Positions 42,753 to 58,868 of a DNA stretch of 64,000 bases are shown piece after piece. Position numbers and translations under genes: made by a program. This DNA is from Candidatus Methylomirabilota bacterium (GTDB taxonomy: Bacteria > Methylomirabilota > Methylomirabilia > Rokubacteriales > CSP1-6). The stretch's first letter is position 1, and the number at the start of each line of letters is the position of its first letter. The notes under the pieces were generated by a model. The model was given only the letters and a program-made list of their open reading frames with translations, was not told the DNA's origin and ran no database searches. The stretch covers positions 6,835 through 70,834 of the forward strand of contig DASTOJ010000305.1 of NCBI GenBank assembly GCA_035762565.1, read 5' to 3'.

Positions 42753-43484
42753 GTGCCTACCTCCGACACGCTCAATACCGGGGTCCTCGAGCTGGTCCTG
42801 AACGCCGGACCGGTCGCGAAGTTCGTCCTGGCGATCCTGTTGCTGTTTTCGATCGTCTCGTGGGCGCTCATCGTCGAGAAGTGGTGGCAGCTCAGGCGGG
42901 TGCGGCGCCAGACGCTGGGCTTCGTCAAGGTCTTCCGCGAGGGGCGACGACCGTCGATCGTGCACTCGGCCGCCCGGAAGTTCCGTGACAGTCCCTTGGC
43001 CCAGCTCTACGCCGCTGCGTACGGGGAGATCTCGGGGCTGCCCGACATCGTCGAGGCCGTCGTCGACGACGGTGACGACGGCCTGGCGCCCGAGCGCCTG
43101 GACGCCGTGCACCGCGCGATGCGGCGGGCGGCCGGGCTCGAGGTGGCCCAGCTCGAGCGCTATCTGCCGTTCCTGGCCACGACCGCCAGCGCGACCCCGT
43201 TCATCGGCCTGTTCGGCACCGTGTGGGGCATCATGTCGTCGTTCCACGGCATCAGCAGCCAGGGCTCGGCCAGCCTGGCCGTGGTGGCGCCGGGCATCTC
43301 GGAGGCGCTCATCGCGACGGCGGCCGGCCTGGCCGCCGCCATTCCGGCGGTCATCGGCTACAACTACTTCGTGAACCGCGTCCGCCACTGGGCCACCGAG
43401 ATGGACGGATTCATGCTCGACCTCCTCAACGTCCTCAGCCGCCCGGTGGGCAAGCTCGCGCGGCCGGCCAAAGATGGCGTTTAA
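42753..43484 (+). CDS. tolQ: TolQ (MotA/TolQ/ExbB proton-channel family), 243 aa.
   Basis: Three TM helices and a conserved C-terminal region GLFGTVWGIM..ALIATAAGLAAAIPAVIGYNYF. Confidence 0.85.
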   Translation: MPTSDTLNTGVLELVLNAGPVAKFVLAILLLFSIVSWALIVEKWWQLRRVRRQTLGFVKVFREGRRPSIVHSAARKFRDSPLAQLYAAAYGEISGLPDIVEAVVDDGDDGLAPERLDAVHRAMRRAAGLEVAQLERYLPFLATTASATPFIGLFGTVWGIMSSFHGISSQGSASLAVVAPGISEALIATAAGLAAAIPAVIGYNYFVNRVRHWATEMDGFMLDLLNVLSRPVGKLARPAKDGV

Positions 43485-43902
43485 CGCGGGCGCGCCGGAA
43501 GGCGAGCGGCGCCTGGGAGCGTCGCTGGCCGAGATCAACATCATCCCGCTCGTCGACGTCGTGCTGGTGCTCCTGCTCATTTTCATGCTGACGGCGCCCA
43601 TGATGTACCGCGGCATCGACGTGAACCTGCCGCGGGCGGCGGCCAGGCCCACGGCTGTCGAGGAACGCATGGTCCTCACCGTCACCAAGGACCGTGCGCT
43701 GTACCTGAACGACAAGCGCGTGCCGCCGGGCGGTCTCGACTCGAACCTGCGCGCGGCGTTCAAGGGTCGCACCGACAGGACGCTCTACCTCAAAGCCGAC
43801 GCGGCCCTCTCGTACGGCGTGGTCATCGAAACGATGGACCAGGTGCGCCGCGCCGGCATCGAGCGCCTGGGCATGGTGACCGAGCCCACGCGGGAGCGCT
43901 GA
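43474..43902 (+). CDS. tolR: TolR / ExbD biopolymer transport protein, 142 aa.
   Basis: Motif EINIIPLVDVVLVLLLIFM followed by a periplasmic domain. Overlaps tolQ by 11 nt. Confidence 0.8.
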   Translation: MAFNAGAPEGERRLGASLAEINIIPLVDVVLVLLLIFMLTAPMMYRGIDVNLPRAAARPTAVEERMVLTVTKDRALYLNDKRVPPGGLDSNLRAAFKGRTDRTLYLKADAALSYGVVIETMDQVRRAGIERLGMVTEPTRER

Positions 43903-43904
43903 GG

Positions 43905-44819
43905 TTGAGCGCGGCGGGCCTGCTCCTGCTCACCCCGCGCCTGCGTCCCCGGAGCGGCCCCGCGCTCCGGCCGGCGCCGCTGCCGGTCACCGCCACCGCC
44001 CTGTCGGCGATCTGCCACGCCGCGCTGGCCGTGGTCGTGGTCCTCGCCGCCACCGCGTGGACGAGCCGTCCGTCGAAGACGTACATCGTGAACCTGGTGC
44101 CGGCGACGCCGGCGGTCGGCGCGCCGCAAGGCCGAACGGCGCCGCCTCCACGGGCCGAGGAGCCGCCGCCGCGCGTGACGCGCCGCACGCCGAGCGAGCT
44201 ACCCGAGCGGGAGACGTCGCGGACGGCGGCGCGGCCTCCCGACCTGCCGGCGCGGGCACCCGCGCTACCGGATGCCCCCGCACGCACGACGTCACTGCCC
44301 GAGCGTGCGCTGCCCGATCGCGCACCGTCCACGCCGCCGCGGCCGATGCCCGCGCCCCGCGCCGGCGACAAGGAACTGCCCGCGGTCGCCAGCGCGCCCG
44401 CCCCGCTGGCCCCGGCGCCATCGACTCCCGCCCCGGCCCCGGCCCCCGCCACCCGCCCCGAGCCACCGCCACCGCCGCTCGGCCGGCCTTCGGGCTCGGC
44501 GCAGGGCTCCGGGGCGCTGACCCTCGACGTCACGGACTTCCCGTTCGCGTGGTATCTGCGGGCGGTCCAGAACAAGATCACCGAGCGTTGGGAGGGTAAA
44601 GCGCTCCAGGGGCGCCAGCCCGTGATCACGTTCGAGATCGGCCGCGACGGGCAGGTGTCGAGCGTCGCCGTCAAGACCAGCAGCGGCAACCCGTACTACG
44701 ACCGCACCGCGATGCGGGCGATCACCGAGTCGGCGCCGTTTCCGGGGCTGCCCGCCGAGTTCCCCGGCTCCGTCCTCCGCATCCACCTCGGCTTCACCTT
44801 CGCCCAGGATCGAGGTTGA
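43905..44819 (+). CDS. tolA: TolA-position protein with a TonB-type C-terminal domain (energy transducer), 304 aa, Pro-rich.
   Basis: TTG start after TGAGG. N-terminal TM segment, long Pro/Ala-rich spacer, TonB_C-like end (VITFEIGRDGQVSSVAVKTSSGNPYYDRTAMRAI). Confidence 0.65.
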   Translation: MSAAGLLLLTPRLRPRSGPALRPAPLPVTATALSAICHAALAVVVVLAATAWTSRPSKTYIVNLVPATPAVGAPQGRTAPPPRAEEPPPRVTRRTPSELPERETSRTAARPPDLPARAPALPDAPARTTSLPERALPDRAPSTPPRPMPAPRAGDKELPAVASAPAPLAPAPSTPAPAPAPATRPEPPPPPLGRPSGSAQGSGALTLDVTDFPFAWYLRAVQNKITERWEGKALQGRQPVITFEIGRDGQVSSVAVKTSSGNPYYDRTAMRAITESAPFPGLPAEFPGSVLRIHLGFTFAQDRG

Positions 44820-44822
44820 TCG

Positions 44823-46157
44823 ATGAGTCTTCGCCGTCCACTCGCGCTCCTGGCAGTCGTCTCGCTGCTCGCGCTGCCCGGCCCGTGGCCGGTGGCGCCG
44901 GCGCCGCCCGCGGGCGCCCAGGCCGTCGACGTCTTCCTGAACATCACCGGCGGCGGCGCCCGCAAGATGAACATCGCCGTTCCCGAATTCACAGTCACGA
45001 CCGGTGCCGATTCCGCCGGTAGTGGCAAGCAACTGGCTGCCGTCACCGGCGCCGACCTCACGTTCTCCGGGCTCTTCAGCGTGGTGGCCGCGACCGGAGC
45101 CATCCCCGCCAACAACCCGGAGGCGTTGCGGCGGTCGTGGACGGAGTTCGCCGCGGCCGGCGCCCACGCCGGCGTGCACGGGCTGCTCGCCCTGCGCGGC
45201 GACCGCGCCGAGGCCGAGATGCGGCTCTACGACCTCACCACGCCCGAGCACCGGCTGATCGGGAGCAAGAAGTTCGAGCTGCCGGCCGCCCAGCTGCGCC
45301 GGCTCGCCCACAAGGTCGCCGACGAGGTGGTGATGCAGTTCACCGGCGAGCCGGGGATCGCCGACACCAAGATCGCCTACGTCGTGGGGCCGCTCGGCGC
45401 CAAGGAGATCGTGATGGCCGACTACGACGGCGCCGCGGTGGCGCCGGTGACGAAGAACGGCTCGATCAACCTCTCCCCGGTGTGGAGCCCCGACGCCCGC
45501 TCGCTGGCGTTCACCTCCTACAAGCAGGGCTATCCCGATCTCTACCGGGCGTTCCCGTTCGAGCGGCGGCCCGACCAGACGCTGGCCGCCTTCGTCGGCA
45601 TCAACTCCTCGCCCGCGTTCAGCCCCGACGGCCGCAGTCTGGCCATGACGCTGAGCAAGGACGGCAATCCCGAGATCTACATCCTCAACCTCGCCAGCGG
45701 CACGATGCGGCGACTCACCCGTCACGCCGGCATCGACACCGAGCCGACCTGGTCGCCCACCGGCCGCCAGATCGCCTTCGTGTCCGATCGCGGCGGCACG
45801 CCGCACATCTACGTGATGGACGCCGAGGGCGCCAACGTCCGCCAGCTCACCTCGGGCGGCTTTCACACGCAGCCGCGCTGGTCGCCCCGCGGTGACGCGA
45901 TCGCGTACACGCAGCGCGCCGGCGCCCACGACGTCTGGCTGGTCGAGATCGACGGCTCCAATCCGCGCCGGCTGACCTCGGGCGGCGACAACCAGGGAGC
46001 CACGTGGGCGCCGAGCGGACGCCATCTGGCGTTCCAGTCCAGTCGCCTCGGCCGCTGGCAGATCTTCGCGATGCTCGCCGACGGTACGGCGGCCGCGCCG
46101 ATCACGCGCGGGGCCAGCGAGAGCACAAGTCCCTCCTGGTCGCCTCGGCTGCCGTGA
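44823..46157 (+). CDS. tolB: TolB periplasmic beta-propeller protein, 444 aa.
   Basis: Signal peptide, TolB N-domain, then repeated WSPDG/WSPTG/WSPRG propeller blades. Confidence 0.85.
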   Translation: MSLRRPLALLAVVSLLALPGPWPVAPAPPAGAQAVDVFLNITGGGARKMNIAVPEFTVTTGADSAGSGKQLAAVTGADLTFSGLFSVVAATGAIPANNPEALRRSWTEFAAAGAHAGVHGLLALRGDRAEAEMRLYDLTTPEHRLIGSKKFELPAAQLRRLAHKVADEVVMQFTGEPGIADTKIAYVVGPLGAKEIVMADYDGAAVAPVTKNGSINLSPVWSPDARSLAFTSYKQGYPDLYRAFPFERRPDQTLAAFVGINSSPAFSPDGRSLAMTLSKDGNPEIYILNLASGTMRRLTRHAGIDTEPTWSPTGRQIAFVSDRGGTPHIYVMDAEGANVRQLTSGGFHTQPRWSPRGDAIAYTQRAGAHDVWLVEIDGSNPRRLTSGGDNQGATWAPSGRHLAFQSSRLGRWQIFAMLADGTAAAPITRGASESTSPSWSPRLP

Positions 46158-46204
46158 TACGATTGCGGGCGTCCAGACGCACGTCGACAAAGGAGGCAAC
46201 GAAG

Positions 46205-46828
46205 ATGCTAAGCCGCTGCGCGCACGTGACGATAACGTCGCTGCTGCTCACCGGTGTGATCCTGGCGGGGTGCGCGAAGCGGCCTGCGACCACGCAGGCG
46301 GCGGCCCCCGCGCCGACCGGTGCGGCAGCGACGACGGCCGGCTCCCCACCCGCCACCGCGGCGGCGCAGCCTTCGACGTCGGCGGGCGCAGGGACGGGAG
46401 CGGGTGGAGCGGCCACGGCGGCGCCAACGGGCCCGGGCCCGGCGACAGCCGCCGCGCCGGCGCGCCCGGACCCCAAGGTGTTCGTGCCGGTCCCGGAGCT
46501 GAAGGACATCCACTTCGACTTCGACAAGTACGACATCCGTCCCGTGGACGCGAAGGTCCTCGACAGCAACGCGACCTGGCTCAAGTCGAACCCCAACCAC
46601 CTCATCCTGATCGAAGGGCACTGCGACGAGCGCGGCACCAACGAGTACAACCTCGCCCTCGGCGAGCGCCGTGCCAAGTCGACGATGAACTACCTGGTCT
46701 CACAGGGCGTCCAGGCCAGCCGCATCACGATCATCAGCTACGGTGAGGAGCGGCCGGCGTGCGCGCAGAAGAACGAAGAGTGCTGGGCCAAGAACCGTCG
46801 CGCACACTTCCTCGTCAAGCCGCGCTAG
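46205..46828 (+). CDS. pal: Peptidoglycan-associated lipoprotein Pal (OmpA family), 207 aa.
   Basis: RBS AAGGAGG. Lipobox LAGCA. OmpA_C motif (IEGHCDERGTNEYNLALGERRA). Confidence 0.85.
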   Translation: MLSRCAHVTITSLLLTGVILAGCAKRPATTQAAAPAPTGAAATTAGSPPATAAAQPSTSAGAGTGAGGAATAAPTGPGPATAAAPARPDPKVFVPVPELKDIHFDFDKYDIRPVDAKVLDSNATWLKSNPNHLILIEGHCDERGTNEYNLALGERRAKSTMNYLVSQGVQASRITIISYGEERPACAQKNEECWAKNRRAHFLVKPR

Positions 46829-47742
46829 CGCCCGCCGGGTGGGCGGCACGGCGGCGCGGGCGCCGCGCCGCGGGGTTGTCCGCCATCGGGCTGGTCTTCC
46901 TCGCCGGTTGCGCCAGCGTCGCCGACGTCACCGGCACCGCGACGCAGGAGGACCTCATGCAGCTGCGGGCCGAGGTCGCGTCGGCGCAGCAGACCGCCCA
47001 GCGCGCCCGCAGCGAGGCCGAGGGTGCGGCGGCGCGCGCCGTGGACGCACGGCTGCGCGCGCAGAGCACCGAGGGCGAGCGTCAGCTGGCCGCGCTGAAC
47101 CGGCGCCTCGACGGCCTGACCACCTCGCTGACCGAACTGGGCACGCGGGTCGACGAGCTGGCCTCGCGCGTCGACGCGGTGGGCCGCCAGCTCAAGAGCG
47201 CCGCCCCCGCCGCTCCAGCCGCTCCAGCCGCACCTCCGCGGACCACGACACCCACGGCGCCCGCGACCGCGCCGCCGCCCGTCCCGGCCCCCGCGGGCAC
47301 ACGGCCGGCGACGAATGCGCTGCAGCCACAGGACATCTACCAGGCCGCCTACATCGACTTCAGCAAGGGGAGCTACGCGCTGGCCATGGCGGGCTTCCGC
47401 GAGTTCCTGCGCCGCTTCCCGGAGCACCCCCTCGCGGGCAACGCCCAGTACTGGATCGGCGAGTCGCACTTCAGCCTCGCTCGGAGCCACGTCAACGCCG
47501 GGCAGACGGACAAGGCGGTCCAGGAAATGGAGCAGGCGGTCCTGGAATTCCGGAAGGTGCTGGCGAACTACCCGCGCGGAGAGAAGGCCCCGACCGCGCT
47601 GTACAAGGAAGCGCTGGCGCTGCTCGACCTCAAGCAGCCAGGACTGGCGCAGCAGCGCCTGGAGTATCTCGTCGCCAATTTCCCCCAGGCCGAGGAAACA
47701 CCGCTCGCCCGCGATCGCCTCGCCACCCTCAAAACTCGCTGA
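46759..47742 (+). CDS. cpoB: CpoB/YbgF (Tol-Pal-associated coiled-coil plus TPR protein), about 320 aa. Start ambiguous (GTG 46759 or 46780).
   Basis: Signal peptide with LAGCA, coiled-coil (LRAEVASAQQTAQRARSE...), C-terminal TPR-like YbgF region (YQAAYIDFSKGSYALAMAGFREFLRRFP). The reading frame overlaps the pal 3' end by 50-70 nt. Confidence 0.75.
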   Translation: MRAEERRVLGQEPSRTLPRQAALAPAGWAARRRGRRAAGLSAIGLVFLAGCASVADVTGTATQEDLMQLRAEVASAQQTAQRARSEAEGAAARAVDARLRAQSTEGERQLAALNRRLDGLTTSLTELGTRVDELASRVDAVGRQLKSAAPAAPAAPAAPPRTTTPTAPATAPPPVPAPAGTRPATNALQPQDIYQAAYIDFSKGSYALAMAGFREFLRRFPEHPLAGNAQYWIGESHFSLARSHVNAGQTDKAVQEMEQAVLEFRKVLANYPRGEKAPTALYKEALALLDLKQPGLAQQRLEYLVANFPQAEETPLARDRLATLKTR

Positions 47743-48537: not shown

Positions 48538-49149
48538 CTAGATCCGGGGCAGGCGCATCGGGGTGGCGGTCCCGGCCGACAGAATGACGCGCAGCCCTTC
48601 TTCGACGGTGAGGCCCGTGAAGATGACGTCGCTCCGGGGAACGACCACGACGTCGCCCAGGTACAGGTTGTTGGTCGGGACGAAGACCGTCACCATTTCC
48701 CCCTTGCCGACCGGCGACTCCAGGACCAGCTCGCTGGTGACGAAGGCGAACGCCCACGTTCCCTCGCGGGGATGCTGGACGAGGACGACGGCCTTGAACG
48801 AGCCGCGCCGTTCCGGGGAGAAGGAATCGATCAGCATCTTGATCGACGGGTAGAGCAGGCGGAACACGGGGACCCTGAGCAGGAGCTTGTCACCCAGGGC
48901 CAGCACCCGCCGGCCGACGACGTTTCGCGCGATCGTGCCCATCAGTAAGATGATGGCCACCGCCGTCAGGAAGCCGAGGCCCGGCACCGGGCGGCCGAAG
49001 ATCTGGAAGTACATCGGCGCGAAGAAGTCGTCGATCTTGACCCAGAAGACCCACAGGATCCAGGCGGTGACGAAGGCGGGGAGGGTGACGAAGATCCCGG
49101 CGATGAAGCGAAGCTTCAACCAGGTCCTCAGTCCCGCGCGATCGCTCAT
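48538..49149 (-). CDS. DUF502-family membrane protein, 203 aa.
   Basis: Start at MSDRAGLRTWLKL. Has FKAVVLVQHPREGTWAFAFVT and VFVPTNNLYLGD, the typical DUF502 signature. Confidence 0.7.
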   Translation of the reverse strand: MSDRAGLRTWLKLRFIAGIFVTLPAFVTAWILWVFWVKIDDFFAPMYFQIFGRPVPGLGFLTAVAIILLMGTIARNVVGRRVLALGDKLLLRVPVFRLLYPSIKMLIDSFSPERRGSFKAVVLVQHPREGTWAFAFVTSELVLESPVGKGEMVTVFVPTNNLYLGDVVVVPRSDVIFTGLTVEEGLRVILSAGTATPMRLPRI

Positions 49150-49161
49150 ACCCGATCGATC

Positions 49162-49896
49162 ATGACACCGAAGCGCGAAGATCGCAAAGCGAGGCCGCGC
49201 GCGCTCGTCACCGGCGGCGCCATCCGGCTGGGTCGCGCGATCGCGCTGGGGTTGGCCGCTTCCGGGATGGACGTGGCGATCGGCTACCACGGCTCGGGTG
49301 CCGCCGCCCGGGCCACGGTGCGGGAGCTCGAGGCCGCCGGCGCCCGCGCCCTCGCCGTGCGGGCCGATCTCGCCGACCCGCGGGCGGCCCGGCGGCTGGT
49401 GACGGCCGCGGCGGGCGCGCTCGACGGGCTCGACGTCCTGGTGAACAGCGCGGCCCGCTTCGCTCGCACGCCGCTCGCGACGGTGAGCCCCGCCCGGTAC
49501 GACGCGCTGCTCGACGTCAACCTTCGCGGCGCCTTCTTCTGCGCCCAGGCCGCAGCCGCGGCGATGACCAGCGGCGGCCACATCGTGAACATCGGCGACG
49601 TGATCACCGAGTTGGCGCGGCCAGGCTGGATTCCCTATACGCTGTCCAAGGCGGGAATACAGGCCATGACACGCGGCCTCGCCGTGGAGCTGCGCCCCCG
49701 CGGCATCGCCGTGAACTGCGTGGCCCCCGGCGCCGTCCTCAAGCCCGACCGGCTCCCCCTCGCCCGCTGGCGCGACATCGCCAAGAACCACGCCGGCCAT
49801 CCCGGCGACGTCGTCGCCGCCGTCGTGTTCTTCGCCACCTGCCCCCTCTACATCACCGGCCAGATCCTCCGAGTCGACGGCGGCGAAACCGCCTGA
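49162..49896 (+). CDS. SDR-family oxidoreductase (short-chain dehydrogenase/reductase), 244 aa.
   Basis: TGGAIRLGRAIALGLAASG (Rossmann fold), NSAA, and the catalytic YTLSKAG. Confidence 0.8.
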   Translation: MTPKREDRKARPRALVTGGAIRLGRAIALGLAASGMDVAIGYHGSGAAARATVRELEAAGARALAVRADLADPRAARRLVTAAAGALDGLDVLVNSAARFARTPLATVSPARYDALLDVNLRGAFFCAQAAAAAMTSGGHIVNIGDVITELARPGWIPYTLSKAGIQAMTRGLAVELRPRGIAVNCVAPGAVLKPDRLPLARWRDIAKNHAGHPGDVVAAVVFFATCPLYITGQILRVDGGETA

Positions 49897-49946
49897 CCCA
49901 CCGATCGTCGCGCCAGGCTCCGACCCTCACCTTTCCAGCGCGGGCA

Positions 49947-49966
49947 TTCGAGCGCCGGCTGCGCAG
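49947..49966. terminator. GC hairpin GGCTGCGC-aggc-GCGCAGCC between the convergent SDR and PepM genes. Candidate bidirectional terminator.
   Basis: Perfect 8-bp stem with a 4-nt loop; no U-tract (common in high-GC genomes). Confidence 0.35.
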
Positions 49967-49986
49967 GCGCGCAGCCCCCTCCGAGC

Positions 49987-51591
49987 CTAAATACTCGACG
50001 CGTCGATGAGGTCGGCGAGGTTGTTGACGTTGACCCAGCCGCCGCGCGTGTAGACCAGCGTCACCGGCCGGTCCCGGGCCAGCACGCGCGTGAGCAGGTC
50101 CGAGAGCCGCGCGCGGGGCAGCGTGCCGTCGGCGCGCGCCTCGGCGATCGCCTCGCGCAGCCACGCGGCGCCCCCGCGGCCCGCGTGCAGCAGGCCCAGC
50201 CAGGCGCCGTGGCTCGAGGCGGGCTCGACGCCCTCGCCGACCGCCGCCAGGCGCACGGGCTCGAAGCTGAACCGCCCCGCGTCGGGACGGCTGCCCTGCA
50301 CCCGGTCCGGCGCGCCCTGTCCGGCCAGCGCGCTGTCGACCGACAGCGTGATCCCCTCGCCCGCCTCCTCGAGCAACGCCTGGACGATGTGGCGCTTGAC
50401 GACGATGTCACCGAACGCGATCAGTGTGCCGGGAACCAGCGCCGCCTCGGCCAGCGCCAGCGAGTAAGCCTCGCCGGTCGTCGCGAACTCGGCGTTGTCC
50501 ACGAAGCGGGCGGCGGGCACATCCACCGCGTCCGCGCGGTACCCGCGCACGACGGTGACGGCTCGGCAGCCGAAGTGGCCGAGGTCGTCGAGCAGCCGGG
50601 CCAGGATCGGCCGGCCCTGCACCTTGAGCATGGCCTTGGGCACCGCGGCGGTGAGCCCGCCGAAGTCGTCGCCAGCCCCGGCCGCCAGCACGATGGCCGA
50701 GAGCGCGTCCCCCCGGGTCGCCGGCAGATAGCGCCGCTCGGCCTCCTCCAGCTCCTCGTCGCCCTGCAGCCGGAAGACCTCCGGCAGCGGCGCCACCTGC
50801 GGCTCCACGTTCAGGAGCGTTTCTTCCTCCCGGAGTCGCCGGGCCGTGGCCTGCATGGCACCGACGGCCGCGCGCAGCAGGTGGTTCGCCCACACGACGG
50901 CGCTCACACCACGGGCACGGAACTCGGCGGTGGGCGTGCGCCAGTACTTGGTCGGCACGAGCACCACCGGCGCGCGGTTCGCCCATTCGTCCAGGAACGC
51001 GAAGATCTCGGCCGCGCTCGACTGGCGGCTGTGGATGAGGATCGCGTCGGCGCCGGCCAGCTGATAGGCCTCGGCGCGGCGGATGGCCTCGGCCAGGCCC
51101 CACCCGGCGATCAGCGCCTCCACGCGCGCGACCAGCACGAAGTCGGGGTCGGTCTGGCTGTCCTTGCCCGCCTTGATCTTGCCGCAGAACTCCCCGACGT
51201 CGGCCAGCGGCTGCTGCTCGGAGCGCAGGAACGAGTTGGTCTTGGGAAACAGCTTGTCCTCGATCGTGACGCCCGCGGCGCCGACCTGCTCCAGCTTGCG
51301 GACCAGCCGCCGCATGTTGTTGAAGTTGCCGTACCCGGTGTCGCCGTCGATCAGGATCGGCGTCGCGCCGGCGGCGTCGGCCATGAACCCGACGTGGTCG
51401 ACCACCTGCGACCACGACAGCTCGTTGTTGTCCCGGACGCCGAACGAGGCCGATATCGTGAGGCCGCTCGCCCACACGCCCTCGAAGCCCGCCTCCGCCG
51501 CGATGCGGGCGGACACGCCGTCGTGGGCCTCCATGAGGAAGGCGGTCCCAGGGCGGGTCACCAGTCCACGCAGCACGCTCGTGCGTCGCAC
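49987..51591 (-). CDS. pepM: Bifunctional phosphoenolpyruvate mutase (PepM; N-terminal ICL/PEPM TIM barrel) fused to a C-terminal nucleotidyltransferase (cytidylyltransferase-like) domain, 534 aa.
   Basis: Has the PepM-specific EDK-x5-NS motif (GVTIEDKLFPKTNSFL) plus FLMEAHDGVSARIAAEAGF. C-terminal NTP-transferase Gly-rich start AIVLAAGAGDDFGG...KAMLKVQGRPIL. GTG start 1 nt after the ppd stop. Confidence 0.8.
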   Translation of the reverse strand: MRRTSVLRGLVTRPGTAFLMEAHDGVSARIAAEAGFEGVWASGLTISASFGVRDNNELSWSQVVDHVGFMADAAGATPILIDGDTGYGNFNNMRRLVRKLEQVGAAGVTIEDKLFPKTNSFLRSEQQPLADVGEFCGKIKAGKDSQTDPDFVLVARVEALIAGWGLAEAIRRAEAYQLAGADAILIHSRQSSAAEIFAFLDEWANRAPVVLVPTKYWRTPTAEFRARGVSAVVWANHLLRAAVGAMQATARRLREEETLLNVEPQVAPLPEVFRLQGDEELEEAERRYLPATRGDALSAIVLAAGAGDDFGGLTAAVPKAMLKVQGRPILARLLDDLGHFGCRAVTVVRGYRADAVDVPAARFVDNAEFATTGEAYSLALAEAALVPGTLIAFGDIVVKRHIVQALLEEAGEGITLSVDSALAGQGAPDRVQGSRPDAGRFSFEPVRLAAVGEGVEPASSHGAWLGLLHAGRGGAAWLREAIAEARADGTLPRARLSDLLTRVLARDRPVTLVYTRGGWVNVNNLADLIDASSI

Positions 51592-51592
51592 G

Positions 51593-52741
51593 TCAGCCTC
51601 CCAAAACGGCCGCCCGGAAACGGTCCCGGAGCGCCGCCGGTGCGTAGGGAAGACGCGGCACATCCGCCTCCTCGGCCGTGACCTTGACGAGCACGAAATG
51701 CGGGCCGTCGCTGGCCAGCGCGCCGCCGAGAGCGGCGTCCAGCGTCCACGGCTCGCTCACCGCCGTGGCGCTGGCGAACCCGGCGGCCGCCGCCAGACGG
51801 TCGAGCCGGACACCGCGCGAGAGCGAGGCCTGGTTGCCCGTCGAGCCGTAGACCTCGTTGTCGAACACGAGGTGCAGGAGGTTGGCGGGGCGCTGGGCGG
51901 CGATCATGGCCAGGATCCCCAGGTTCATCAGGAGATTGCCGTCCCCGTCGAAGACGACGACGCGACGGGTCGGCTGGGCCAGCGCCAAACCGAGCGCGAT
52001 CGCCGGCGCCAGCCCCATGGAGCCGATCATGTAGAAGCTCTGCGGCCGGTCGGCCAGCGAGAAACTCTCACGGCAGATGTAGCCGTTGGCGTGCGTGATC
52101 GGCGCGTCCCCGGCCGCCTTGAGGGCGATCCCCAGCGCGGTGAGCCGCGACATCGTCGGGGGGGCGAGCGCTCCCGCCGCCACCGGAGGCGGAGCGATCG
52201 GCGCGGCCGGCGTCGCGCGCGCCGCCGGCGCGGCCGGCCCGACACCACCGGTCTCGACGACCCGGGGCGGGACGAGCAGCGCCACCGGCGCCAGGCGCGC
52301 CTCCATCGCGGCGGCGGCCCAGGCCAGGTCGGCGTCGATCGAGTCGGCGGCCAGCACGCGGTGCGGGACGCCGAGCAGCTCGAGCAGCCGCGGGGTGATC
52401 TCGCCCGTCAGGATGTGCTCGGGCGCATCCTTGCCGCCGAAGCCCCGCCACGTCACCACCAGCAGCGCCGGCAGGCCGTACATGAGCGAGAGCGAGGCCA
52501 GGGCGTTGAGGCTGGTGCCGAGCCCGGAGTTCTGCATCAGCACCGCCGGCCGCCGGCCGCCGAACCAGGCGCCCGCCGCGACCCCGACCGCGGCGTCCTC
52601 GCGCACGGCTGCCACGTAGGGCGCGCGGGAGCCCCCCTCGAGCACGGCGATGAGATCCTCGATCAACGAGCAGGGCACGCCGGTGAAGAAGTCGAAGCCG
52701 TGGCGCTCGAGACCGGCGGCGAACTCGCGGCCGGAGATCAC
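51593..52741 (-). CDS. ppd: Phosphonopyruvate decarboxylase (thiamine-diphosphate-dependent, fused alpha/beta type), 382 aa.
   Basis: N-terminus MISGREFAAGLERHGFDFFTGVPCSLIEDL is typical of Ppd. TPP-binding motif GDGNLLMNLG. Located immediately upstream of pepM. Confidence 0.8.
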   Translation of the reverse strand: MISGREFAAGLERHGFDFFTGVPCSLIEDLIAVLEGGSRAPYVAAVREDAAVGVAAGAWFGGRRPAVLMQNSGLGTSLNALASLSLMYGLPALLVVTWRGFGGKDAPEHILTGEITPRLLELLGVPHRVLAADSIDADLAWAAAAMEARLAPVALLVPPRVVETGGVGPAAPAARATPAAPIAPPPVAAGALAPPTMSRLTALGIALKAAGDAPITHANGYICRESFSLADRPQSFYMIGSMGLAPAIALGLALAQPTRRVVVFDGDGNLLMNLGILAMIAAQRPANLLHLVFDNEVYGSTGNQASLSRGVRLDRLAAAAGFASATAVSEPWTLDAALGGALASDGPHFVLVKVTAEEADVPRLPYAPAALRDRFRAAVLGG

Positions 52742-52751
52742 TGCGGCCCGC

Positions 52752-53447
52752 TCAGGGCGCGACGATCCGGCCGCCGCCCATCGTCCGCAAGAAATCGCCG
52801 AGGGAGGCGAAGCGCATGAACGGGTTCTGCCGCTTCTCGGCGCCGATGGTGGACGACGGGCCGCCGTAGTTGTGGCCCGGAAACAGCAGCGTGTCGTCGG
52901 GCAACGCTCCCAGCCGCTGGGTGAGCGAGTAGTACATCTCGCTCGGGTCGCTGCCCGGCAGGTCCGTGCGGCCGCAGGAGCCGATGAACAGCGTGTCGCC
53001 GGAGATGAGCCGGCCGTCGACGAGGAAGCACTGCGAGCCCGGCGTGTGACCGGGTGTGTGCAGGAATGTCAGCTTCAGGCCTCCGACGTCGAGCGTGTCG
53101 TGGTTGTCCACCTTCACCAGATCCGAGCCGAGGCCCGGCAGGAACTCCCGCTCGGCCTTGTGCACGTACACCTTGGCGGGCACGCGGGCCAGCAGCTCCT
53201 CCACGCCCGCGATCCGGCCCGGCATACCCCACGAGGCGAGGCTGCCGCCGACGTGGTCCTGATGGGTGTGGGTGACGAGCGCCCCGGCGATCGTCATGTC
53301 GTCGGCGGCGGCGGTGTCGACGATGGCGTCGATCTCCCAGGCTGGGTCGACGACGACGCACCGGCGCGCCACCGGATCGCCCACCAGGTAGACGAAGTTC
53401 TGCATCGGTCCCAGCTCGAGCTGCTTGAGGTAGATACCGCCGGCCAT
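52752..53447 (-). CDS. MBL-fold metallo-hydrolase (glyoxalase-II-like), 231 aa. First gene of the phosphonate module.
   Basis: Start at MAGGIYLKQ, preceded by GGAGGG. THTHQDHVGG (HxHxDH), HTPGHTPGS, and a C-terminal GHNYGG. Confidence 0.65.
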   Translation of the reverse strand: MAGGIYLKQLELGPMQNFVYLVGDPVARRCVVVDPAWEIDAIVDTAAADDMTIAGALVTHTHQDHVGGSLASWGMPGRIAGVEELLARVPAKVYVHKAEREFLPGLGSDLVKVDNHDTLDVGGLKLTFLHTPGHTPGSQCFLVDGRLISGDTLFIGSCGRTDLPGSDPSEMYYSLTQRLGALPDDTLLFPGHNYGGPSSTIGAEKRQNPFMRFASLGDFLRTMGGGRIVAP

Positions 53448-53491
53448 CGGGCTCCGCCCTCCGAGGGTCTCCATCCTACCGCACCCGGCCA

Positions 53492-53517
53492 CGCGGGGGC
53501 CCTTCGGGCCCCACGCG
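53492..53517. terminator. Strong GC hairpin (CGCGGGGGCCC-ttc-GGGCCCCaCGCG) between the small Arg-rich protein gene and the MBL gene.
   Basis: 7-8 bp G:C stem. Its loop/stem resembles the hairpin of the 13969/47761 repeat family (GGGGGCCCTTCG(A)GGCCCC). Confidence 0.35.
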
Positions 53518-53518
53518 G

Positions 53519-53752
53519 TCATTCCAGCGCCAGGAAGGCGTAGCCGACGGCGCGGATCTCTTCGTCGACGGCGGGACGGGCGCGGCGGTCGCCCCGGCGG
53601 CGCTCGGGGTTGCTGTCGGTCGCGGCGCTGCGGCGCTCGCCCGTTCGGCGGTCCCAGATGACCTCGACGCTCTCGGCGTCGGCGAACGTCTGGCTGAGGT
53701 ACCGGTACAGGTCCGGCCGCTCCCGGCTCACGATGAAGAGTTCCCGCCCCAT
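53519..53752 (-). CDS. Small Arg-rich protein (77 aa), hypothetical.
   Basis: MGRELFIVSRERPDLYRYLSQTFADAESVEVIWDRRTGERR...ERRRGDRRARP. A structured N-terminal half, then an RR-rich basic tail. Confidence 0.4.
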   Translation of the reverse strand: MGRELFIVSRERPDLYRYLSQTFADAESVEVIWDRRTGERRSAATDSNPERRRGDRRARPAVDEEIRAVGYAFLALE

Positions 53753-53767
53753 GGGCGGGAGATGTTA

Positions 53768-55531
53768 TCAGCTTTTGAAGTCGTCGGGGACTTTAGGTGC
53801 AGGGCCGAGCGCCCGGTCCTCCACGCTGTAGACGGTCGGCTGGGTCTTGGTCCGGATATAGGCGAGGTCGCCCTCCCGCTTGCCCACCTGCACGGTGGCG
53901 ATTTCTCCGCCGTCACCGCGGAACAGTCCGATCTCCAGCGTGGGCGCGTCCAGCCCCCAGCGCGCGGGCTCCACCCCCTGCGGCGCGACGATGTCCTTCC
54001 AGCGCAACGCGCGCAACGTGTAGAGCAGGTCGTCGACCTTCTGGCCGCTGGCGCCGCCCTTCGTCGGCTCGAGCATGCGCCACTCGGTGTCGCCCTTGCG
54101 CTCGAGCACCGCGGTCTGGCCCCCGGCCTGCACGCGGACGCGCTTGACGTCCCTGGGCTCGAGCGCGGCCAGCAGCCGCCGGTCGCGCAGGTCGTTGAGC
54201 GAGCGGCCGATGTCGGTGAGCGCCTTGCCCTCCACCAGGGTGACGGGACCCTTGTCGGCCACCGCCGCATAGGCGCTGGGAGCCCCGCCCCGCATCTCGC
54301 GTGAGGCGGCCAGCAGCACGGTCGTCCGGGCGCCGCCCTGATCGATCAGCGCCAGGCGCACCTCGGGCTTGGGGAGGTACCGGGGGATCCCGGCCGCGTC
54401 GTCGCTGAGGAACCCCTGCGCGCGAAGCCCTTGCAGCCGGGTGAGCACCGCGCCCACCTCGACCTGGTCGGCCGGCAGCAGCTCGGGCGCGACGATCTTC
54501 CACTCGTCCTTCTCGCGGGCCAGCACGACCAGGCCCCTGGGGCTTTCGACCTCGAGGCGGGCGAGCTTGTCGCGCTCGACCTCCACCAGGACCTTGTTGC
54601 GCAGCACGCCCACGTTCTTGGGGACCTGCTTCCAGACCTCCTCGGGCAGGATCAGCACGCTCGTCTCGTCCGGCCGCATCGCGTAGACGCCCTTCTTGTC
54701 GGCGTCGACGCGGCCGAGCAGCAGCGTGCGGCTCACCCGGTCCTTGTCGCGGCCGGTGTGGATCGTGAGGCGGACGGGCCGCTCGAGGCCGTAGGCCTGG
54801 CGCGAGGGTGGGACCTCGGCCACGAAGTCGCTCACCTTCTGCGCGGCGAGCTTGTCGAGGAACTCGCGAACGGTCTCGTTGTCGGCCCGCATGGCGACGG
54901 GTCGGGTGATCTGCCAGGCGCCCGCACCGCCCTGCACGGCGAGCGTCGTCTCCGGCAGGACGACCTCGAAGCCGGTGACGGCCTTGGCGTCGAAGTCCAG
55001 GATCGTGCGGTCGCGGAAGTCGGCGACGGCCCGGCTGGCGTCGCGGAGCACGCTCTCACCCAGGACGAACACGGCCGGCTTGTCCCGCTCGCGGGCGTAG
55101 ACCCACACGCCGGTCGGGTTCCGGCCGCCCAGCTGAAGGCCGAGCGTCTTGCCGTCGGTGAGCGTGAGGGTCACCTCGGCGGCCGGCTTGTCGAGGCCGA
55201 AGTCGGCCGGGGAGGCAGGATTGGGATCGATCTCCCGATCGATCCGGGCGGTGAGGATCGTGGCGAGCACCTCGTCCACCGCGGTGCGGCTGCCGCGGGC
55301 CTTGACGGGCGCCAGCACGTGCCATGCCTCGCCCTCGCGCTGCAGGCGCACCGTCTCGCCCCCGCGCTTGAGCTCGATGCCGGTCACGTCCTTGGTGTCG
55401 GCGCCGAAGACGCGGCCCTTGCGGGCGGCGGCCTCCTCCCGGGAGGGCCCCCAGCGCACCTCGTAGACGTAATAGAAGCCGCCCACGAGAACGAGCAGGA
55501 GGGCGAGGACCGCGGTCGTCTGCCAGCGCAT
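53768..55531 (-). CDS. DUF4340-domain protein (the usual partner of GldG-type ABC-2 auxiliary proteins), 587 aa.
   Basis: N-terminal TM anchor, then a long repetitive periplasmic region. It immediately follows the gldG-like gene. Confidence 0.65.
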   Translation of the reverse strand: MRWQTTAVLALLLVLVGGFYYVYEVRWGPSREEAAARKGRVFGADTKDVTGIELKRGGETVRLQREGEAWHVLAPVKARGSRTAVDEVLATILTARIDREIDPNPASPADFGLDKPAAEVTLTLTDGKTLGLQLGGRNPTGVWVYARERDKPAVFVLGESVLRDASRAVADFRDRTILDFDAKAVTGFEVVLPETTLAVQGGAGAWQITRPVAMRADNETVREFLDKLAAQKVSDFVAEVPPSRQAYGLERPVRLTIHTGRDKDRVSRTLLLGRVDADKKGVYAMRPDETSVLILPEEVWKQVPKNVGVLRNKVLVEVERDKLARLEVESPRGLVVLAREKDEWKIVAPELLPADQVEVGAVLTRLQGLRAQGFLSDDAAGIPRYLPKPEVRLALIDQGGARTTVLLAASREMRGGAPSAYAAVADKGPVTLVEGKALTDIGRSLNDLRDRRLLAALEPRDVKRVRVQAGGQTAVLERKGDTEWRMLEPTKGGASGQKVDDLLYTLRALRWKDIVAPQGVEPARWGLDAPTLEIGLFRGDGGEIATVQVGKREGDLAYIRTKTQPTVYSVEDRALGPAPKVPDDFKS

Positions 55532-55543
55532 CGTGCCCGCCGG

Positions 55544-57109
55544 CTACTTCGCGGCGCGGCGGCGCCCGACGGCGACGATCCCGCCCGCGAGCGCCAGCCC
55601 GGGCAGGATGACCACGGGCAGCCAGAACACCAGCTGGGCCTGCTGCGAGGTGAGAAAGACCGGGGTCTGCCGGGTGTCCCGTGGCCGGATGGAGATCTGG
55701 TCCTCCTCCTCGGCCAGCCAGGACACCGTGTTGAGGAAGAAGTCGCGGTTGCCCTGCACGTTGAGGAACTGGTTGGCGGCCAGGTTCGAGGTTCCATAGA
55801 GGACGAGGCGCGCCTTGTCCTTGGTGGCGACGGCGGCGAGCGTCAGCGGCCCCTTCGGATCTTGGGGGTCGGGCTTGGCCTGCCCCTGCTCGAGCGCTTG
55901 GCGGTCCGTCTCGCCCCAGGAGTCGGGGGTCGTGCGCGCCAGCGGCTGGACCGTCACTCCCGCCGGGGGCGTCTTGGCCGTGCCGATGCTGCGCGTGAGC
56001 GGGAACAGCGTCGTGATGCCCGCCATGTCGCGCGTGATCGGGTGCGGCTCGTACTGCTGCACGATCGGCACCTGGGGGCCGATGCCGAACACCTGGCCGA
56101 TCGGGTTCAGCTCGATGACGAGGTCGTCGTCGAGCGTGAGGCCCCAGCGGCCCAGCAGCTTGCGCAGCGCCTCCGGCTGGCTGCGCTCGGGGAACGGCGG
56201 ATTGAGCATCGCCAGCAGCTTGCCGCCCCGGCCGAGGTAGGCGTCCAGCGCGTCGATCTCCGGCCCGAAGAAGTCGGTGCGGGGACCGGGCACGATCAGC
56301 ACGGCGGCGTCGTCCGGCACCTTGCCCTGGCGGGCCAGCGCCAGCGGCTTGACCTCGTAGTTCGCCTTCTCGAGGGCGCCCTTGGCCTCGGTGAAGCCGG
56401 GCCGGTCGCTGTTGCCGAGCTCGGCCTCGCCGTGCCCCTGGACGACGTAGACGACCCGCTTGCCCTCGCGCATCACCTTGACGAGGGCGTTCGTGAGCTT
56501 CTCCTCCTGGTCGGCGTCCTGCACCTTCTCGGTGCGCCCCTTGGCCTCCAGCACGGTGGTGCCGTACGCCTCCACGCCGAGGGCCCGGGCCAGCGCGGGG
56601 TCGCGGTCGGGATCAACCGATTTCCAGGCGAACTTGTCGCCGGCGTAGCGCGCGTACTGCTTGAAGAGATCCTCGGCCACCCGCTTCCCCGGCTGGTCGC
56701 TGCGGTAGAAGGCCACGGCGTTGACCTTCGTGGTGAGGCCCTTGAGCATCTGAATCGTCTGCGGTGACAGGCTGTGACGCCGGTTTTCGGTGAGGTCGAG
56801 ACGCGCGTTGTGCCGGTAGGACAGCGCCTCCACGACCCCGATGACGCCGATCACGAGCAGGACCGCCACCAGGCTGTTGAGGCCGTAGCGCACGCTGCGC
56901 GCGCCGAGGGTCGCCCGCGGATCGCGCCACTGCGGCAGGAACGACAGCAGAACGAGGGCCACGCCGGCGATGACGAGCGGCCACCAGAACCGGTTCCACT
57001 GGGCGCCGATCACCGCCCAGTTGAAGCGGGCGCCCAGCCCCTGCACGACCGCCGCCGCCAAAAGAAGCAGCCCGAGCCAGAACGCGCCCTCGGCCAGCCG
57101 GCGGGGCAT
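55544..57109 (-). CDS. GldG-family ABC-2 transporter auxiliary (substrate-binding / periplasmic) component, 521 aa.
   Basis: Start at MPRRLAEGAFWL, overlapping the permease stop by 1 nt. N- and C-terminal TM anchors flank a large periplasmic domain, typical of GldG. Confidence 0.75.
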   Translation of the reverse strand: MPRRLAEGAFWLGLLLLAAAVVQGLGARFNWAVIGAQWNRFWWPLVIAGVALVLLSFLPQWRDPRATLGARSVRYGLNSLVAVLLVIGVIGVVEALSYRHNARLDLTENRRHSLSPQTIQMLKGLTTKVNAVAFYRSDQPGKRVAEDLFKQYARYAGDKFAWKSVDPDRDPALARALGVEAYGTTVLEAKGRTEKVQDADQEEKLTNALVKVMREGKRVVYVVQGHGEAELGNSDRPGFTEAKGALEKANYEVKPLALARQGKVPDDAAVLIVPGPRTDFFGPEIDALDAYLGRGGKLLAMLNPPFPERSQPEALRKLLGRWGLTLDDDLVIELNPIGQVFGIGPQVPIVQQYEPHPITRDMAGITTLFPLTRSIGTAKTPPAGVTVQPLARTTPDSWGETDRQALEQGQAKPDPQDPKGPLTLAAVATKDKARLVLYGTSNLAANQFLNVQGNRDFFLNTVSWLAEEEDQISIRPRDTRQTPVFLTSQQAQLVFWLPVVILPGLALAGGIVAVGRRRAAK

Positions 57110-57876
57110 CAGCCGCTCCACCGGCGCGCTTCCAGCGAGCGCAGGGCCAGGAACAGCGCCAGGACCGTGAAGTTCACGTAGTAGATGATGTCCTTGGTGT
57201 CGAGCACGCCCTTGGCGAAGGTGTCGTTGTGGTCGAGGATCGACAGGTGGGTGAGCACCGCGCCGAGCGGGCCGCCCGCGAACTCGGCCGTCCAGCCGAT
57301 GATCCAGAACATCAGCAGGACGCCGAACGTGACGATCGCCGCCACCACCTGGTTCTCGGTGAGCGATGAGGCGAACAGGCCCACCGCCAGGAACATGGCG
57401 CCCATCAGGAGCAGGCCGAGGTACCCGGTGAGCAGCGGCCCCCATTCCACCCGGGCGAAGCTGACGAGCATGGCCGGGTACGCGAGCGTGCCGGCCACCA
57501 TCACGCCGTACATCGTCAGGGCCGCCAGGTACTTGCCGGCGAGGACGGCGCCGTCCCGCACCGGGTAGGTGAGCAGCAGCTCGATGGTGCCCGAGCGCCG
57601 CTCCTCGGCGAACAGTCGCATCGTCACCAGCGGCATCAGCAGGAGCAGGATGACGCTGACGTTGGCGAAGAGCGGCCGCAGGACGGCGTCGGTCACGTTG
57701 AGGTCGCGCCCCATCTGGGGGTTCATCGCCGCCTGCATCGAGGCCCGGGTGAAGAACGAGAAGATCGAGAAGAAGAAGTAGCCGGCGATGAGCAGGAAGA
57801 TGGTGAGGATGACGTAGGCCACCGGCGAGGTGAAGTACAGCCGGAGCTCCTTCTTGTAGATCGGCCAGATTCTCAC
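57109..57876 (-). CDS. ABC-2 type transporter permease (GldF-like), 255 aa.
   Basis: GTG start (VRIWPIYKKELRLYFTSP) overlapping the ATPase stop (GTGA). Six TM helices. Confidence 0.75.
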   Translation of the reverse strand: MRIWPIYKKELRLYFTSPVAYVILTIFLLIAGYFFFSIFSFFTRASMQAAMNPQMGRDLNVTDAVLRPLFANVSVILLLLMPLVTMRLFAEERRSGTIELLLTYPVRDGAVLAGKYLAALTMYGVMVAGTLAYPAMLVSFARVEWGPLLTGYLGLLLMGAMFLAVGLFASSLTENQVVAAIVTFGVLLMFWIIGWTAEFAGGPLGAVLTHLSILDHNDTFAKGVLDTKDIIYYVNFTVLALFLALRSLEARRWSG

Positions 57877-58868
57877 CGCGCCGCCTCCTCCACGCCCGCC
57901 TCCCGGGCGCTCGCCGCCGGCGCCGCCCCCTCGCTCTCCTCGCCCGCCACGATCCGGATGAAAACTTCCTCCAGTGTCATGCCCACCTGGCGCAGCTCGA
58001 GCAGGCGCCACTTCTGCTGGGCGGCCAGCTGGAAGATCTCCCCCCGCACGTCACGGCCGCGCGCCGATTCCACCACGAAGCGGCCGGCCCCGTCGGTCAG
58101 CGTCAGCCCCTCCACCCGCACCACGCCCGGGATGCCCTGCATGCTCTCGCGCACCACGGCCGGCGGCGCCACGATCTCGACCTCGACCCGCGCGGTCGGG
58201 AAGAACTGCTCGACCAGCCGGTCGATCGGCCCCTGGGCCACGATGCCCCCGCGGTTGATGATCACCACGCCGCTGCACAGCATCGACACCTCGGGCAGGA
58301 TGTGCGTGGACAGGATCACCGTGTGCTCGCCGCCCAACGACTTGATCAGGCTCCTGATCTCGGCGATCTGCCGGGGGTCGAGCCCGATCGTCGGCTCGTC
58401 GAGGATCAGCACGTGGGGATCGCTGACGATGGCCTGGGCCAGCCCCACCCGCTGCCGGTACCCCTTGGAGAGGTTGCGGATGAGCCGGTTCTGCACGTCG
58501 GCGATGAGGCAGCGGTCCATCACCTCGGCCACGCGCTTCTTGCGGGCCGAGCGCGGCACGCCCTTGACCTCGGCGACGAAGTCCAGATACGGCGCCACTC
58601 GCATGTCGCCGTAGAGGGGTACGCTCTCGGGCAGGTAACCGATCCGCCGGCGGACTTCCATCGACTCGCGGAAGACGTCGAAGCCGGCCACCCGCGCCGT
58701 GCCGCCCGAGGCCGGCATGAAGCAGGCGAGGATGCGCATGGTCGTCGACTTGCCGGCGCCGTTGGGGCCGAGGAAGCCCACGATCTCGCCGGGCGCGACG
58801 TTGAACGTGACGTCGCGTATGGCGGTGACGGGACCGTAGTTCTTCGTCAGGTTCTGGACTTCGATCAT
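57873..58868 (-). CDS. ABC transporter ATP-binding protein (GldA-like), 331 aa.
   Basis: Walker A GPNGAGKST, signature LSKGYRQRV, Walker B ILILDEPT. Confidence 0.85.
   Translation of the reverse strand: MIEVQNLTKNYGPVTAIRDVTFNVAPGEIVGFLGPNGAGKSTTMRILACFMPASGGTARVAGFDVFRESMEVRRRIGYLPESVPLYGDMRVAPYLDFVAEVKGVPRSARKKRVAEVMDRCLIADVQNRLIRNLSKGYRQRVGLAQAIVSDPHVLILDEPTIGLDPRQIAEIRSLIKSLGGEHTVILSTHILPEVSMLCSGVVIINRGGIVAQGPIDRLVEQFFPTARVEVEIVAPPAVVRESMQGIPGVVRVEGLTLTDGAGRFVVESARGRDVRGEIFQLAAQQKWRLLELRQVGMTLEEVFIRIVAGEESEGAAPAASAREAGVEEAAR

Follow-up and report, generated by a model that had tools for sequence, protein, structure and literature searches.

A compact Methylomirabilota phosphonate locus is probably a two-gene module of Ppd and a PepM–nucleotidyltransferase fusion on an otherwise standard 2-aminoethylphosphonate route

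The window analyzed in this work is a stretch of 64,000 nucleotides from a Candidatus Methylomirabilota bacterium (contig DASTOJ010000305.1 of GenBank assembly GCA_035762565.1, positions 6,835 to 70,834). It contains three minus-strand genes packed into positions 49987–53447 with gaps of only 10 nt and 1 nt; they code for a metallo-β-lactamase (MBL)-fold protein, the phosphonopyruvate decarboxylase Ppd, and a phosphoenolpyruvate (PEP) mutase fused to a nucleotidyltransferase (PepM/NTase). In our opinion, the locus is probably a minimal phosphonate module of two genes, Ppd and the PepM/PntC-like fusion, that lies between resident housekeeping genes of a Methylomirabilota (Rokubacteria) chromosome. 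Sequence comparisons likewise favor a route from PepM via Ppd and a transaminase encoded in trans, with 2-aminoethylphosphonate (AEP) and then its CMP conjugate as the probable product. The locus is ordinary and already annotated publicly, its fusion belongs to the commonest PepM fusion class, and each of its odd-looking features is explained by comparative genomics.

The PepM half scores 362.3 bits on the PEP mutase equivalog TIGR02320, above the cutoff of 319.55, and 207 bits on PF13714. The catalytic motif EDKxxxxxNS distinguishes Ppm from the rest of the isocitrate lyase superfamily. An earlier note on this DNA, made by a model from the letters alone, had read the canonical motif here, and EDKLFPKTNS is indeed found and is invariant in 14 fusion proteins (Table 1). 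The fusion open reading frame (ORF) spans 49987–51663; most likely, however, translation starts at the GTG at 51591, 1 nt past the Ppd stop and with a GGGAGG ribosome-binding site (RBS) in front. From there, the product has 534 aa; NCBI lists the very same protein as HEU4371385.1, 'phosphoenolpyruvate mutase [Methylomirabilota bacterium]'. The partner that consumes phosphonopyruvate is thus encoded directly upstream. Ppd itself starts at GTG 52741, 10 nt past the MBL stop, and reaches 298.4 bits on TIGR03297, slightly under the equivalog cutoff of 312.5; Pfam detects both of its thiamine pyrophosphate (TPP) domains, TPP_enzyme_N and TPP_enzyme_C. As the earlier note had claimed, C–P bond formation is hence predicted to be encoded, with the TIGR02320 score, the motif and the adjacent Ppd all pointing the same way.

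By family membership, PepM would turn PEP into phosphonopyruvate, and Ppd would decarboxylate this to phosphonoacetaldehyde, drawing the unfavorable equilibrium forward. Sister genomes suggest that a 2-aminoethylphosphonate:pyruvate transaminase (AEPT) encoded elsewhere would then make AEP from phosphonoacetaldehyde. Judged by fold and family and by analogy to the cytidylyltransferase PntC, the fused NTase might activate AEP as a nucleoside monophosphate (NMP) conjugate, most likely CMP-AEP, and the activated AEP could finally be attached to a putative lipid or glycan.

For the C-terminal domain, the earlier note had named a LicC-like nucleotidyltransferase and proposed a search with hidden Markov models. 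This search gave a PF12804 (NTP_transf_3) match of 46.7 bits against a gathering cutoff of 27, and LicC is also the best structural match. An AlphaFold model of the domain from 25 sequences has a pLDDT of 91.7 and a pTM of 0.90; in a Foldseek comparison with the PDB, LicC 1jyk ranks first with TM scores of 0.76/0.79, and the PntC-AEPT structures 6pd1/6pd2 are in the top group with query TM scores of 0.75–0.79. The characterized AEP cytidylyltransferases Tde1415 PntC-AEPT and Ari-PntC (6pd1/6pd2) thus share the fold and the Pfam family of the window's NTase. In Tde1415, however, PntC is fused to a transaminase and not to PepM, and the sequence similarity is marginal: against solved structures, the NTase domain resembles LicC (E = 5e-5) more than PntC (phmmer E = 0.16). 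Two acidic residues of Tde-PntC, Glu104 and Glu196, contact the AEP amine (PMC6697681). In our alignment, the catalytic-type residues Lys319 ('PK'), Asp395 ('GD') and Asp419 of the NTase are invariant across phyla. The NTP-binding loop, AAGAGDDFGG, lacks the canonical arginine, in contrast to GxGxR in canonical enzymes and AASRG in most homologs of other phyla. Over window 50620–50690 (minus strand, fusion residues ~301–324), the loop region reads AAGAGDDFGGLTAAVPK and is without arginine. All Methylomirabilota copies have the arginine-less loop, even where a transaminase gene is adjacent, so that it characterizes the clade as a whole and is not the mark of a different pathway.

Fusions of this kind are widespread. 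In the survey of Rice et al. 2019, about 60% of the Ppm that carry the motif have a nucleotidyltransferase as fusion partner; the most frequent one is PF12804, fused to 33% of all Ppm with the motif (PMC6697681). Among the matches listed in our search, 120 of 120 relatives have the PF13714+PF12804 architecture. Full-length homologs (44–54% identity over residues 1–534) with PepM at the N terminus and the NTase at the C terminus occur in Alpha- and Gammaproteobacteria, Nitrospirales, Anabaena/Nostoc, Verrucomicrobia, Actinomycetota and Ignavibacteria. The idea in the earlier note that a PepM–NTase fusion is unusual can hence be dropped, since PF12804 fusions are the most frequent form of Ppm and keep the same domain order across many phyla. 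Around the fusion gene in 15 loci from other phyla, Ppd (by its TPP domains) is adjacent in 10 and a class-V aminotransferase in 8, occasionally joined by additional NTases or by a CDP-alcohol phosphatidyltransferase; this is the standard context of AEP synthesis and phosphonyl tailoring. The window protein agrees with the Ppm-PF12804 fusions of AEP-type clusters (PMC6697681, PMC8942020) in its two domains and their order, in the motif, in the adjacent Ppd and in the LicC/PntC fold. Differences concern the surroundings and the loop: in other phyla PepM precedes Ppd, usually with AEPT adjacent and in most cases with the AASRG loop, whereas in the window Ppd precedes PepM, no AEPT is adjacent, the loop reads AAGAG, and the vicinity has neither a second PntC nor a transferase.

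Fom1 of the fosfomycin pathway likewise joins PepM to a nucleotidyltransferase, whose role is to activate a phosphonate intermediate further down the pathway. The domain order in the window is literally the reverse of that in Fom1, as the earlier note had it, but the comparison is not meaningful, and we rejected the analogy because the NTases belong to different families. The cytidylyltransferase of Fom1 is an N-terminal PF01467 (CTP_transf_like) domain (PMC6697681); the window protein has its PF12804 domain at the C terminus and no match to PF01467. The two proteins are independent fusions, with no domain swap between them.

The third step is absent from the operon. The earlier note had seen neither an AEP transaminase nor an iron-dependent alcohol dehydrogenase (Fe-ADH) there, and tblastn and Pfam find none in the whole 64-kb window either. 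In tblastn, none of nine transaminase probes did better than E = 0.11; a second probe set, for phosphonate Fe-ADH, PhnA, EamA, an extra NTase and the AEPT of sister locus L062, matched only the fused NTase domain. PhnW/AepZ transaminases are abundant in Methylomirabilota. Four of the seven AEPT contexts examined in this phylum are tight PhnA–AEPT–EamA units (Table 1), two are Ppd–AEPT–PepM/NTase clusters and one is a solitary gene. Two sister metagenome-assembled genomes (MAGs) contain both the MBL–Ppd–PepM/NTase operon and, on another contig, an AEPT: DATBJF01 (operon L017, AEPT L062) and JBIOXS01 (operon L007, AEPT L067). The AEPT of L062 scores 386 bits on TIGR03301, above the cutoff of 360.8, and the PhnA beside it reaches 568 bits on TIGR02335 (cutoff 408). 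From these family assignments, the third step is predicted to be supplied in trans in both MAGs.

Within Methylomirabilota, we distinguish two cluster variants. Variant A, as in the window, is MBL–Ppd–PepM/NTase, found in the same order in about 20 loci; variant B is Ppd–AEPT–PepM/NTase and occurs in L010, L013 and L060. The fusion proteins of variant B share ~80% identity with that of the window and have the same P-loop. In a neighbor-joining tree, which was not bootstrapped, they branch among variant-A lineages; this speaks for a single type of enzyme, around which the partner genes were shuffled. An AEPT in trans in two sister MAGs and next to the fusion gene in variant B makes the standard AEP pathway most likely; contrary to the conclusion of the earlier note, the missing third step need not imply an unclear or novel product. 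The same note had held that a complete AEP gene set nearby would make this a standard pathway, and the genes found in trans come close to that.

Two loci of the phylum deviate from these variants. In variant-B locus L060 (L060:8095–9522, on a JGI contig of 806 kb), PepM/NTase has only 475 aa, and an internal deletion of ~58 aa has taken the EDK-x5-NS segment with it; a pseudogene or an assembly artefact is possible. In the Rokubacteria locus L052 (L052:6001–8608, ENA contig_21877, 607 kb), the order is MBL–Ppd–DUF502, with an intact orphan Ppd, PepM/NTase cleanly absent and ~100 nt between Ppd and DUF502.

Table 1. Positions of the phosphonate module, its neighbors in the window and the transaminase units on sister contigs
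Feature	Position	Strand	Basis or remark
Bifunctional PEP mutase (N-terminal, residues 1–~294)/LicC-PntC-like nucleotidyltransferase (C-terminal, ~295–534)	49987..51591	-	TIGR02320, PF13714, PF12804
PepM signature EDKLFPKTNS (E111–S120)	51232..51261	-	invariant in 14-sequence multi-phylum alignment
Nucleotidyltransferase domain, residues ~295–534	49987..50709	-	PF12804, AlphaFold model, Foldseek, alignments
Phosphonopyruvate decarboxylase (Ppd), 382 aa	51593..52741	-	TIGR03297, TPP_enzyme_N, TPP_enzyme_C
MBL-fold (ETHE1/glyoxalase-II-like) protein, 231 aa	52752..53447	-	Lactamase_B 66.9 bits
Short-chain dehydrogenase/reductase, convergent to fusion gene	49162-49896	+	
77-aa Arg-rich ORF, between DUF4340 and MBL	53519-53752	-	no Pfam match
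Gliding-type ABC transporter set (ABC ATPase, ABC-2 permease, GldG-like auxiliary protein, DUF4340)	53768-58868	-	
Tol-Pal cluster (ExbB/TolQ, ExbD/TolR, TolA-like, TolB, Pal, CpoB)	42753-47742	+	
PhnA–AEPT–EamA units	L062:5783-8952; L067:3800-6952; L064:3767-6983; L068:3776-6952		

A different third step could be a reduction. The earlier note had suggested that the convergent short-chain dehydrogenase/reductase (SDR) acts as a phosphonoacetaldehyde reductase; either this protein or another reductase would yield 2-hydroxyethylphosphonate (HEP), and the fused NTase would then make CMP-HEP. The gene is real, and it lies beside the fusion gene both here and in nine other loci (L006, L007, L009, L014, L015, L017, L023, L036 and L055). 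HEP-type branches also exist in the fusion family. Locus L019 (L019:104–5664, on a contig binned as Nitrospirales) carries a fusion 69% identical to that of the window, followed by a second, stand-alone NTase, an uncharacterized 464-aa protein and, joined to an adenosine-phosphosulfate kinase domain, a phosphonate-type Fe-ADH; the locus is one such HEP-type branch. The window's SDR, however, runs convergent and is hence not co-transcribed with the module. It is missing from the closest operon group (L001–L005, L012 and L018) and persists in L059 beside MBL and DUF502 where phosphonate genes are lacking. Its best NCBIfam matches, all under the cutoffs, are PRK09134, pteridine reductase and TmpR-type SDRs, whereas the known phosphonoacetaldehyde reductases are Fe-ADHs (PMC8942020), of which the window has none. 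These comparisons mark the SDR as a backbone neighbor that is not credible as a dedicated pathway enzyme, and we regard a HEP product of the window's cluster as quite unlikely.

For the MBL gene, the most plausible start is ATG 53447 behind a GGAGGG RBS, and the resulting 231 aa fit the length of its homologs (231–236 aa). The protein shares Lactamase_B, the HxHxDH motif (THTHQDH) and GRTD with ETHE1-type persulfide dioxygenases and with glyoxalases II of the YcbL/GloB type. It matches the solved structures 9rhq, 4ysb, 4chl and 2xf4 with phmmer E values of 1e-22 to 1e-32, its closest named solved relatives being ETHE1 (4chl) and glyoxalase II (2xf4/6rz0). On the GloB equivalog TIGR03413, it scores 105.2 bits, below the cutoff of 200.8, so that ETHE1/glyoxalase-II-like is a putative assignment at the family level only. 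The gene is probably co-transcribed with Ppd and PepM/NTase.

One might thus suppose that the MBL protein is a new tailoring or branch-point enzyme of phosphonate metabolism, acting for example on phosphonoacetaldehyde or in hydrolysis of an NMP-phosphonate, and that the operon is self-contained and leads to a novel product. Besides the short gap, the order MBL–Ppd–PepM is kept in all the variant-A loci mentioned above, and the MBL proteins there are 84–93% identical. Moreover, Li & Horsman report that ~13% of ppm neighborhoods have no known branch-point enzyme (PMC8942020). The comparison of loci speaks against such a role. In L059 (JACPCW010000086, GCA_016184365.1), an orthologous MBL gene (87% identical protein) stands at the same site of the same backbone, followed by SDR and DUF502 (MBL–SDR–DUF502–…–Pal–TolB) and without Ppd or PepM; there, it overlaps a gene for a GntR/aminotransferase-type regulator. 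The same MAG, JACPCW01, carries Ppd–AEPT–PepM/NTase on contig 146 (L013). Because L059 keeps the orthologue at this site without Ppd and PepM, the MBL gene is not a dedicated gene of the module. Variant-B clusters have no MBL gene, and in the 15 loci from other phyla the fusion gene has none beside it. The MBL protein is also the best-conserved of the trio (84–93% identity, against 66–88% for Ppd), which likewise speaks against a role in the pathway. The nearest solved relatives, a persulfide dioxygenase and glyoxalase II, also argue against phosphonate tailoring. Furthermore, the variant-A flanks are equally conserved: the ABC transporter, GldG-like, DUF4340 and 77-aa ORF genes border one end, and the other end has DUF502, abhydrolase, zf-HC2, CpoB, Pal and TolB. 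The order MBL–Ppd–PepM could hence simply reflect shared synteny. On this comparative evidence, we take the MBL gene for a resident of the backbone that is not credible as a dedicated pathway enzyme. The earlier note had made it the first gene of the module; we do not count it as a module gene, and a new MBL-dependent branch is unlikely.

Alternatively, the module may be partly vestigial, or its fused NTase impaired or regulatory, so that the output would be only free phosphonoacetaldehyde or AEP, or nothing at all. The absence of the P-loop arginine across the whole clade would fit such a view, and the loss of PepM/NTase in L052 and of the EDK-NS segment in L060 indicates that the module decays in some lineages. 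In the window, however, the module genes are intact and show a strong coding signal, with a third-codon-position GC content (GC3) of 0.93–0.94. Lys319, Asp395 and Asp419 have been kept across phyla, the NTase domain is 65–87% conserved within Methylomirabilota, and its fold is predicted confidently. A module out of function in the window is therefore improbable.

Several points weigh against the AEP route that we prefer. The trans AEPT is known from sister MAGs and not from the window's own MAG, and MAG bins can be chimeric. NCBI accession series gave no link between the two, as the window protein is HEU4371385 and the AEPTs compared belong to the HEY, HEX and HEV series. The trans AEPT stands beside PhnA, which is a phosphonoacetate hydrolase, and beside a membrane protein with kinship to a 'phosphonate utilization' family, and may thus have a primarily catabolic role. 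The fused NTase is without the P-loop arginine of the canonical sugar- and choline-phosphate nucleotidyltransferases, and no CMP-AEP transferase was found near the Methylomirabilota clusters. In the literature retrieved, we found no assay of any Ppm-fused PF12804 domain, and on Ppm-fused PntC domains or Rokubacteria pepM nothing later than Rice 2019 and Li & Horsman 2022. Finally, the short distance of the MBL gene from Ppd and its strong conservation make a functional link possible. Taken together to the extreme, the MBL protein would have been recruited as an early-branch or tailoring enzyme, the arginine-less PntC-like domain would have an altered specificity and make a nucleotide-phosphonate other than CMP-AEP, and the trans PhnA–PhnW–EamA unit would be purely catabolic; we consider this combination very unlikely.

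The AEPT reaction is reversible, and one and the same AEPT may work in the synthesis as well as in the breakdown of phosphonates. The units of PhnA, PhnW/AepZ and an EamA permease in Methylomirabilota have no PhnY aldehyde dehydrogenase alongside, and the usual catabolic route PhnW–PhnY–PhnA is thus incomplete at that locus.

The two-gene module with a transaminase in trans is embedded in a chromosomal setting of envelope functions. The phosphonate genes lie between the gliding-type ABC transporter set and the Tol-Pal cluster (Table 1), an envelope-related neighborhood that is conserved in Rokubacteria, and Pfam scans assign only housekeeping functions to the remaining window genes. GC content is ~72% across the entire window, and a composition comparison gave the same GC and GC3 for Ppd and PepM as for neighboring genes, which rules out a recent horizontal insertion visible by composition. 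Scans of positions 49000–54000 gave no sigma-70-like promoter sites and four weak terminator-like matches where about one is expected, none of them convincingly placed after the fusion gene. The 77-aa ORF next to the MBL gene is conserved, and several sister contigs have a gene called at this site as well. The stop codon of the 77-aa ORF overlaps (ATGA) with an ATG upstream in the MBL ORF that could serve as an alternative start. In sister genomes with 85–88% identity, a gene for an AurF-like diiron oxygenase (PF11583; L048:7039–8037, minus strand) lies divergent from the MBL–Ppd–PepM operon; the window has no such gene.

The significance of these findings is limited; they add Methylomirabilota, an abundant uncultured phylum of soil and groundwater, to the lineages with the common PepM–PntC-type module. 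In general, a cluster that seems to be without a branch-point enzyme does not have to signal new chemistry, for the transaminase may be supplied in trans, and genes packed close together may be unrelated residents of the backbone. Hence, in phosphonate genome mining, neighborhoods classed as 'post-Ppd other' should not be called novel before whole-genome and comparative checks.

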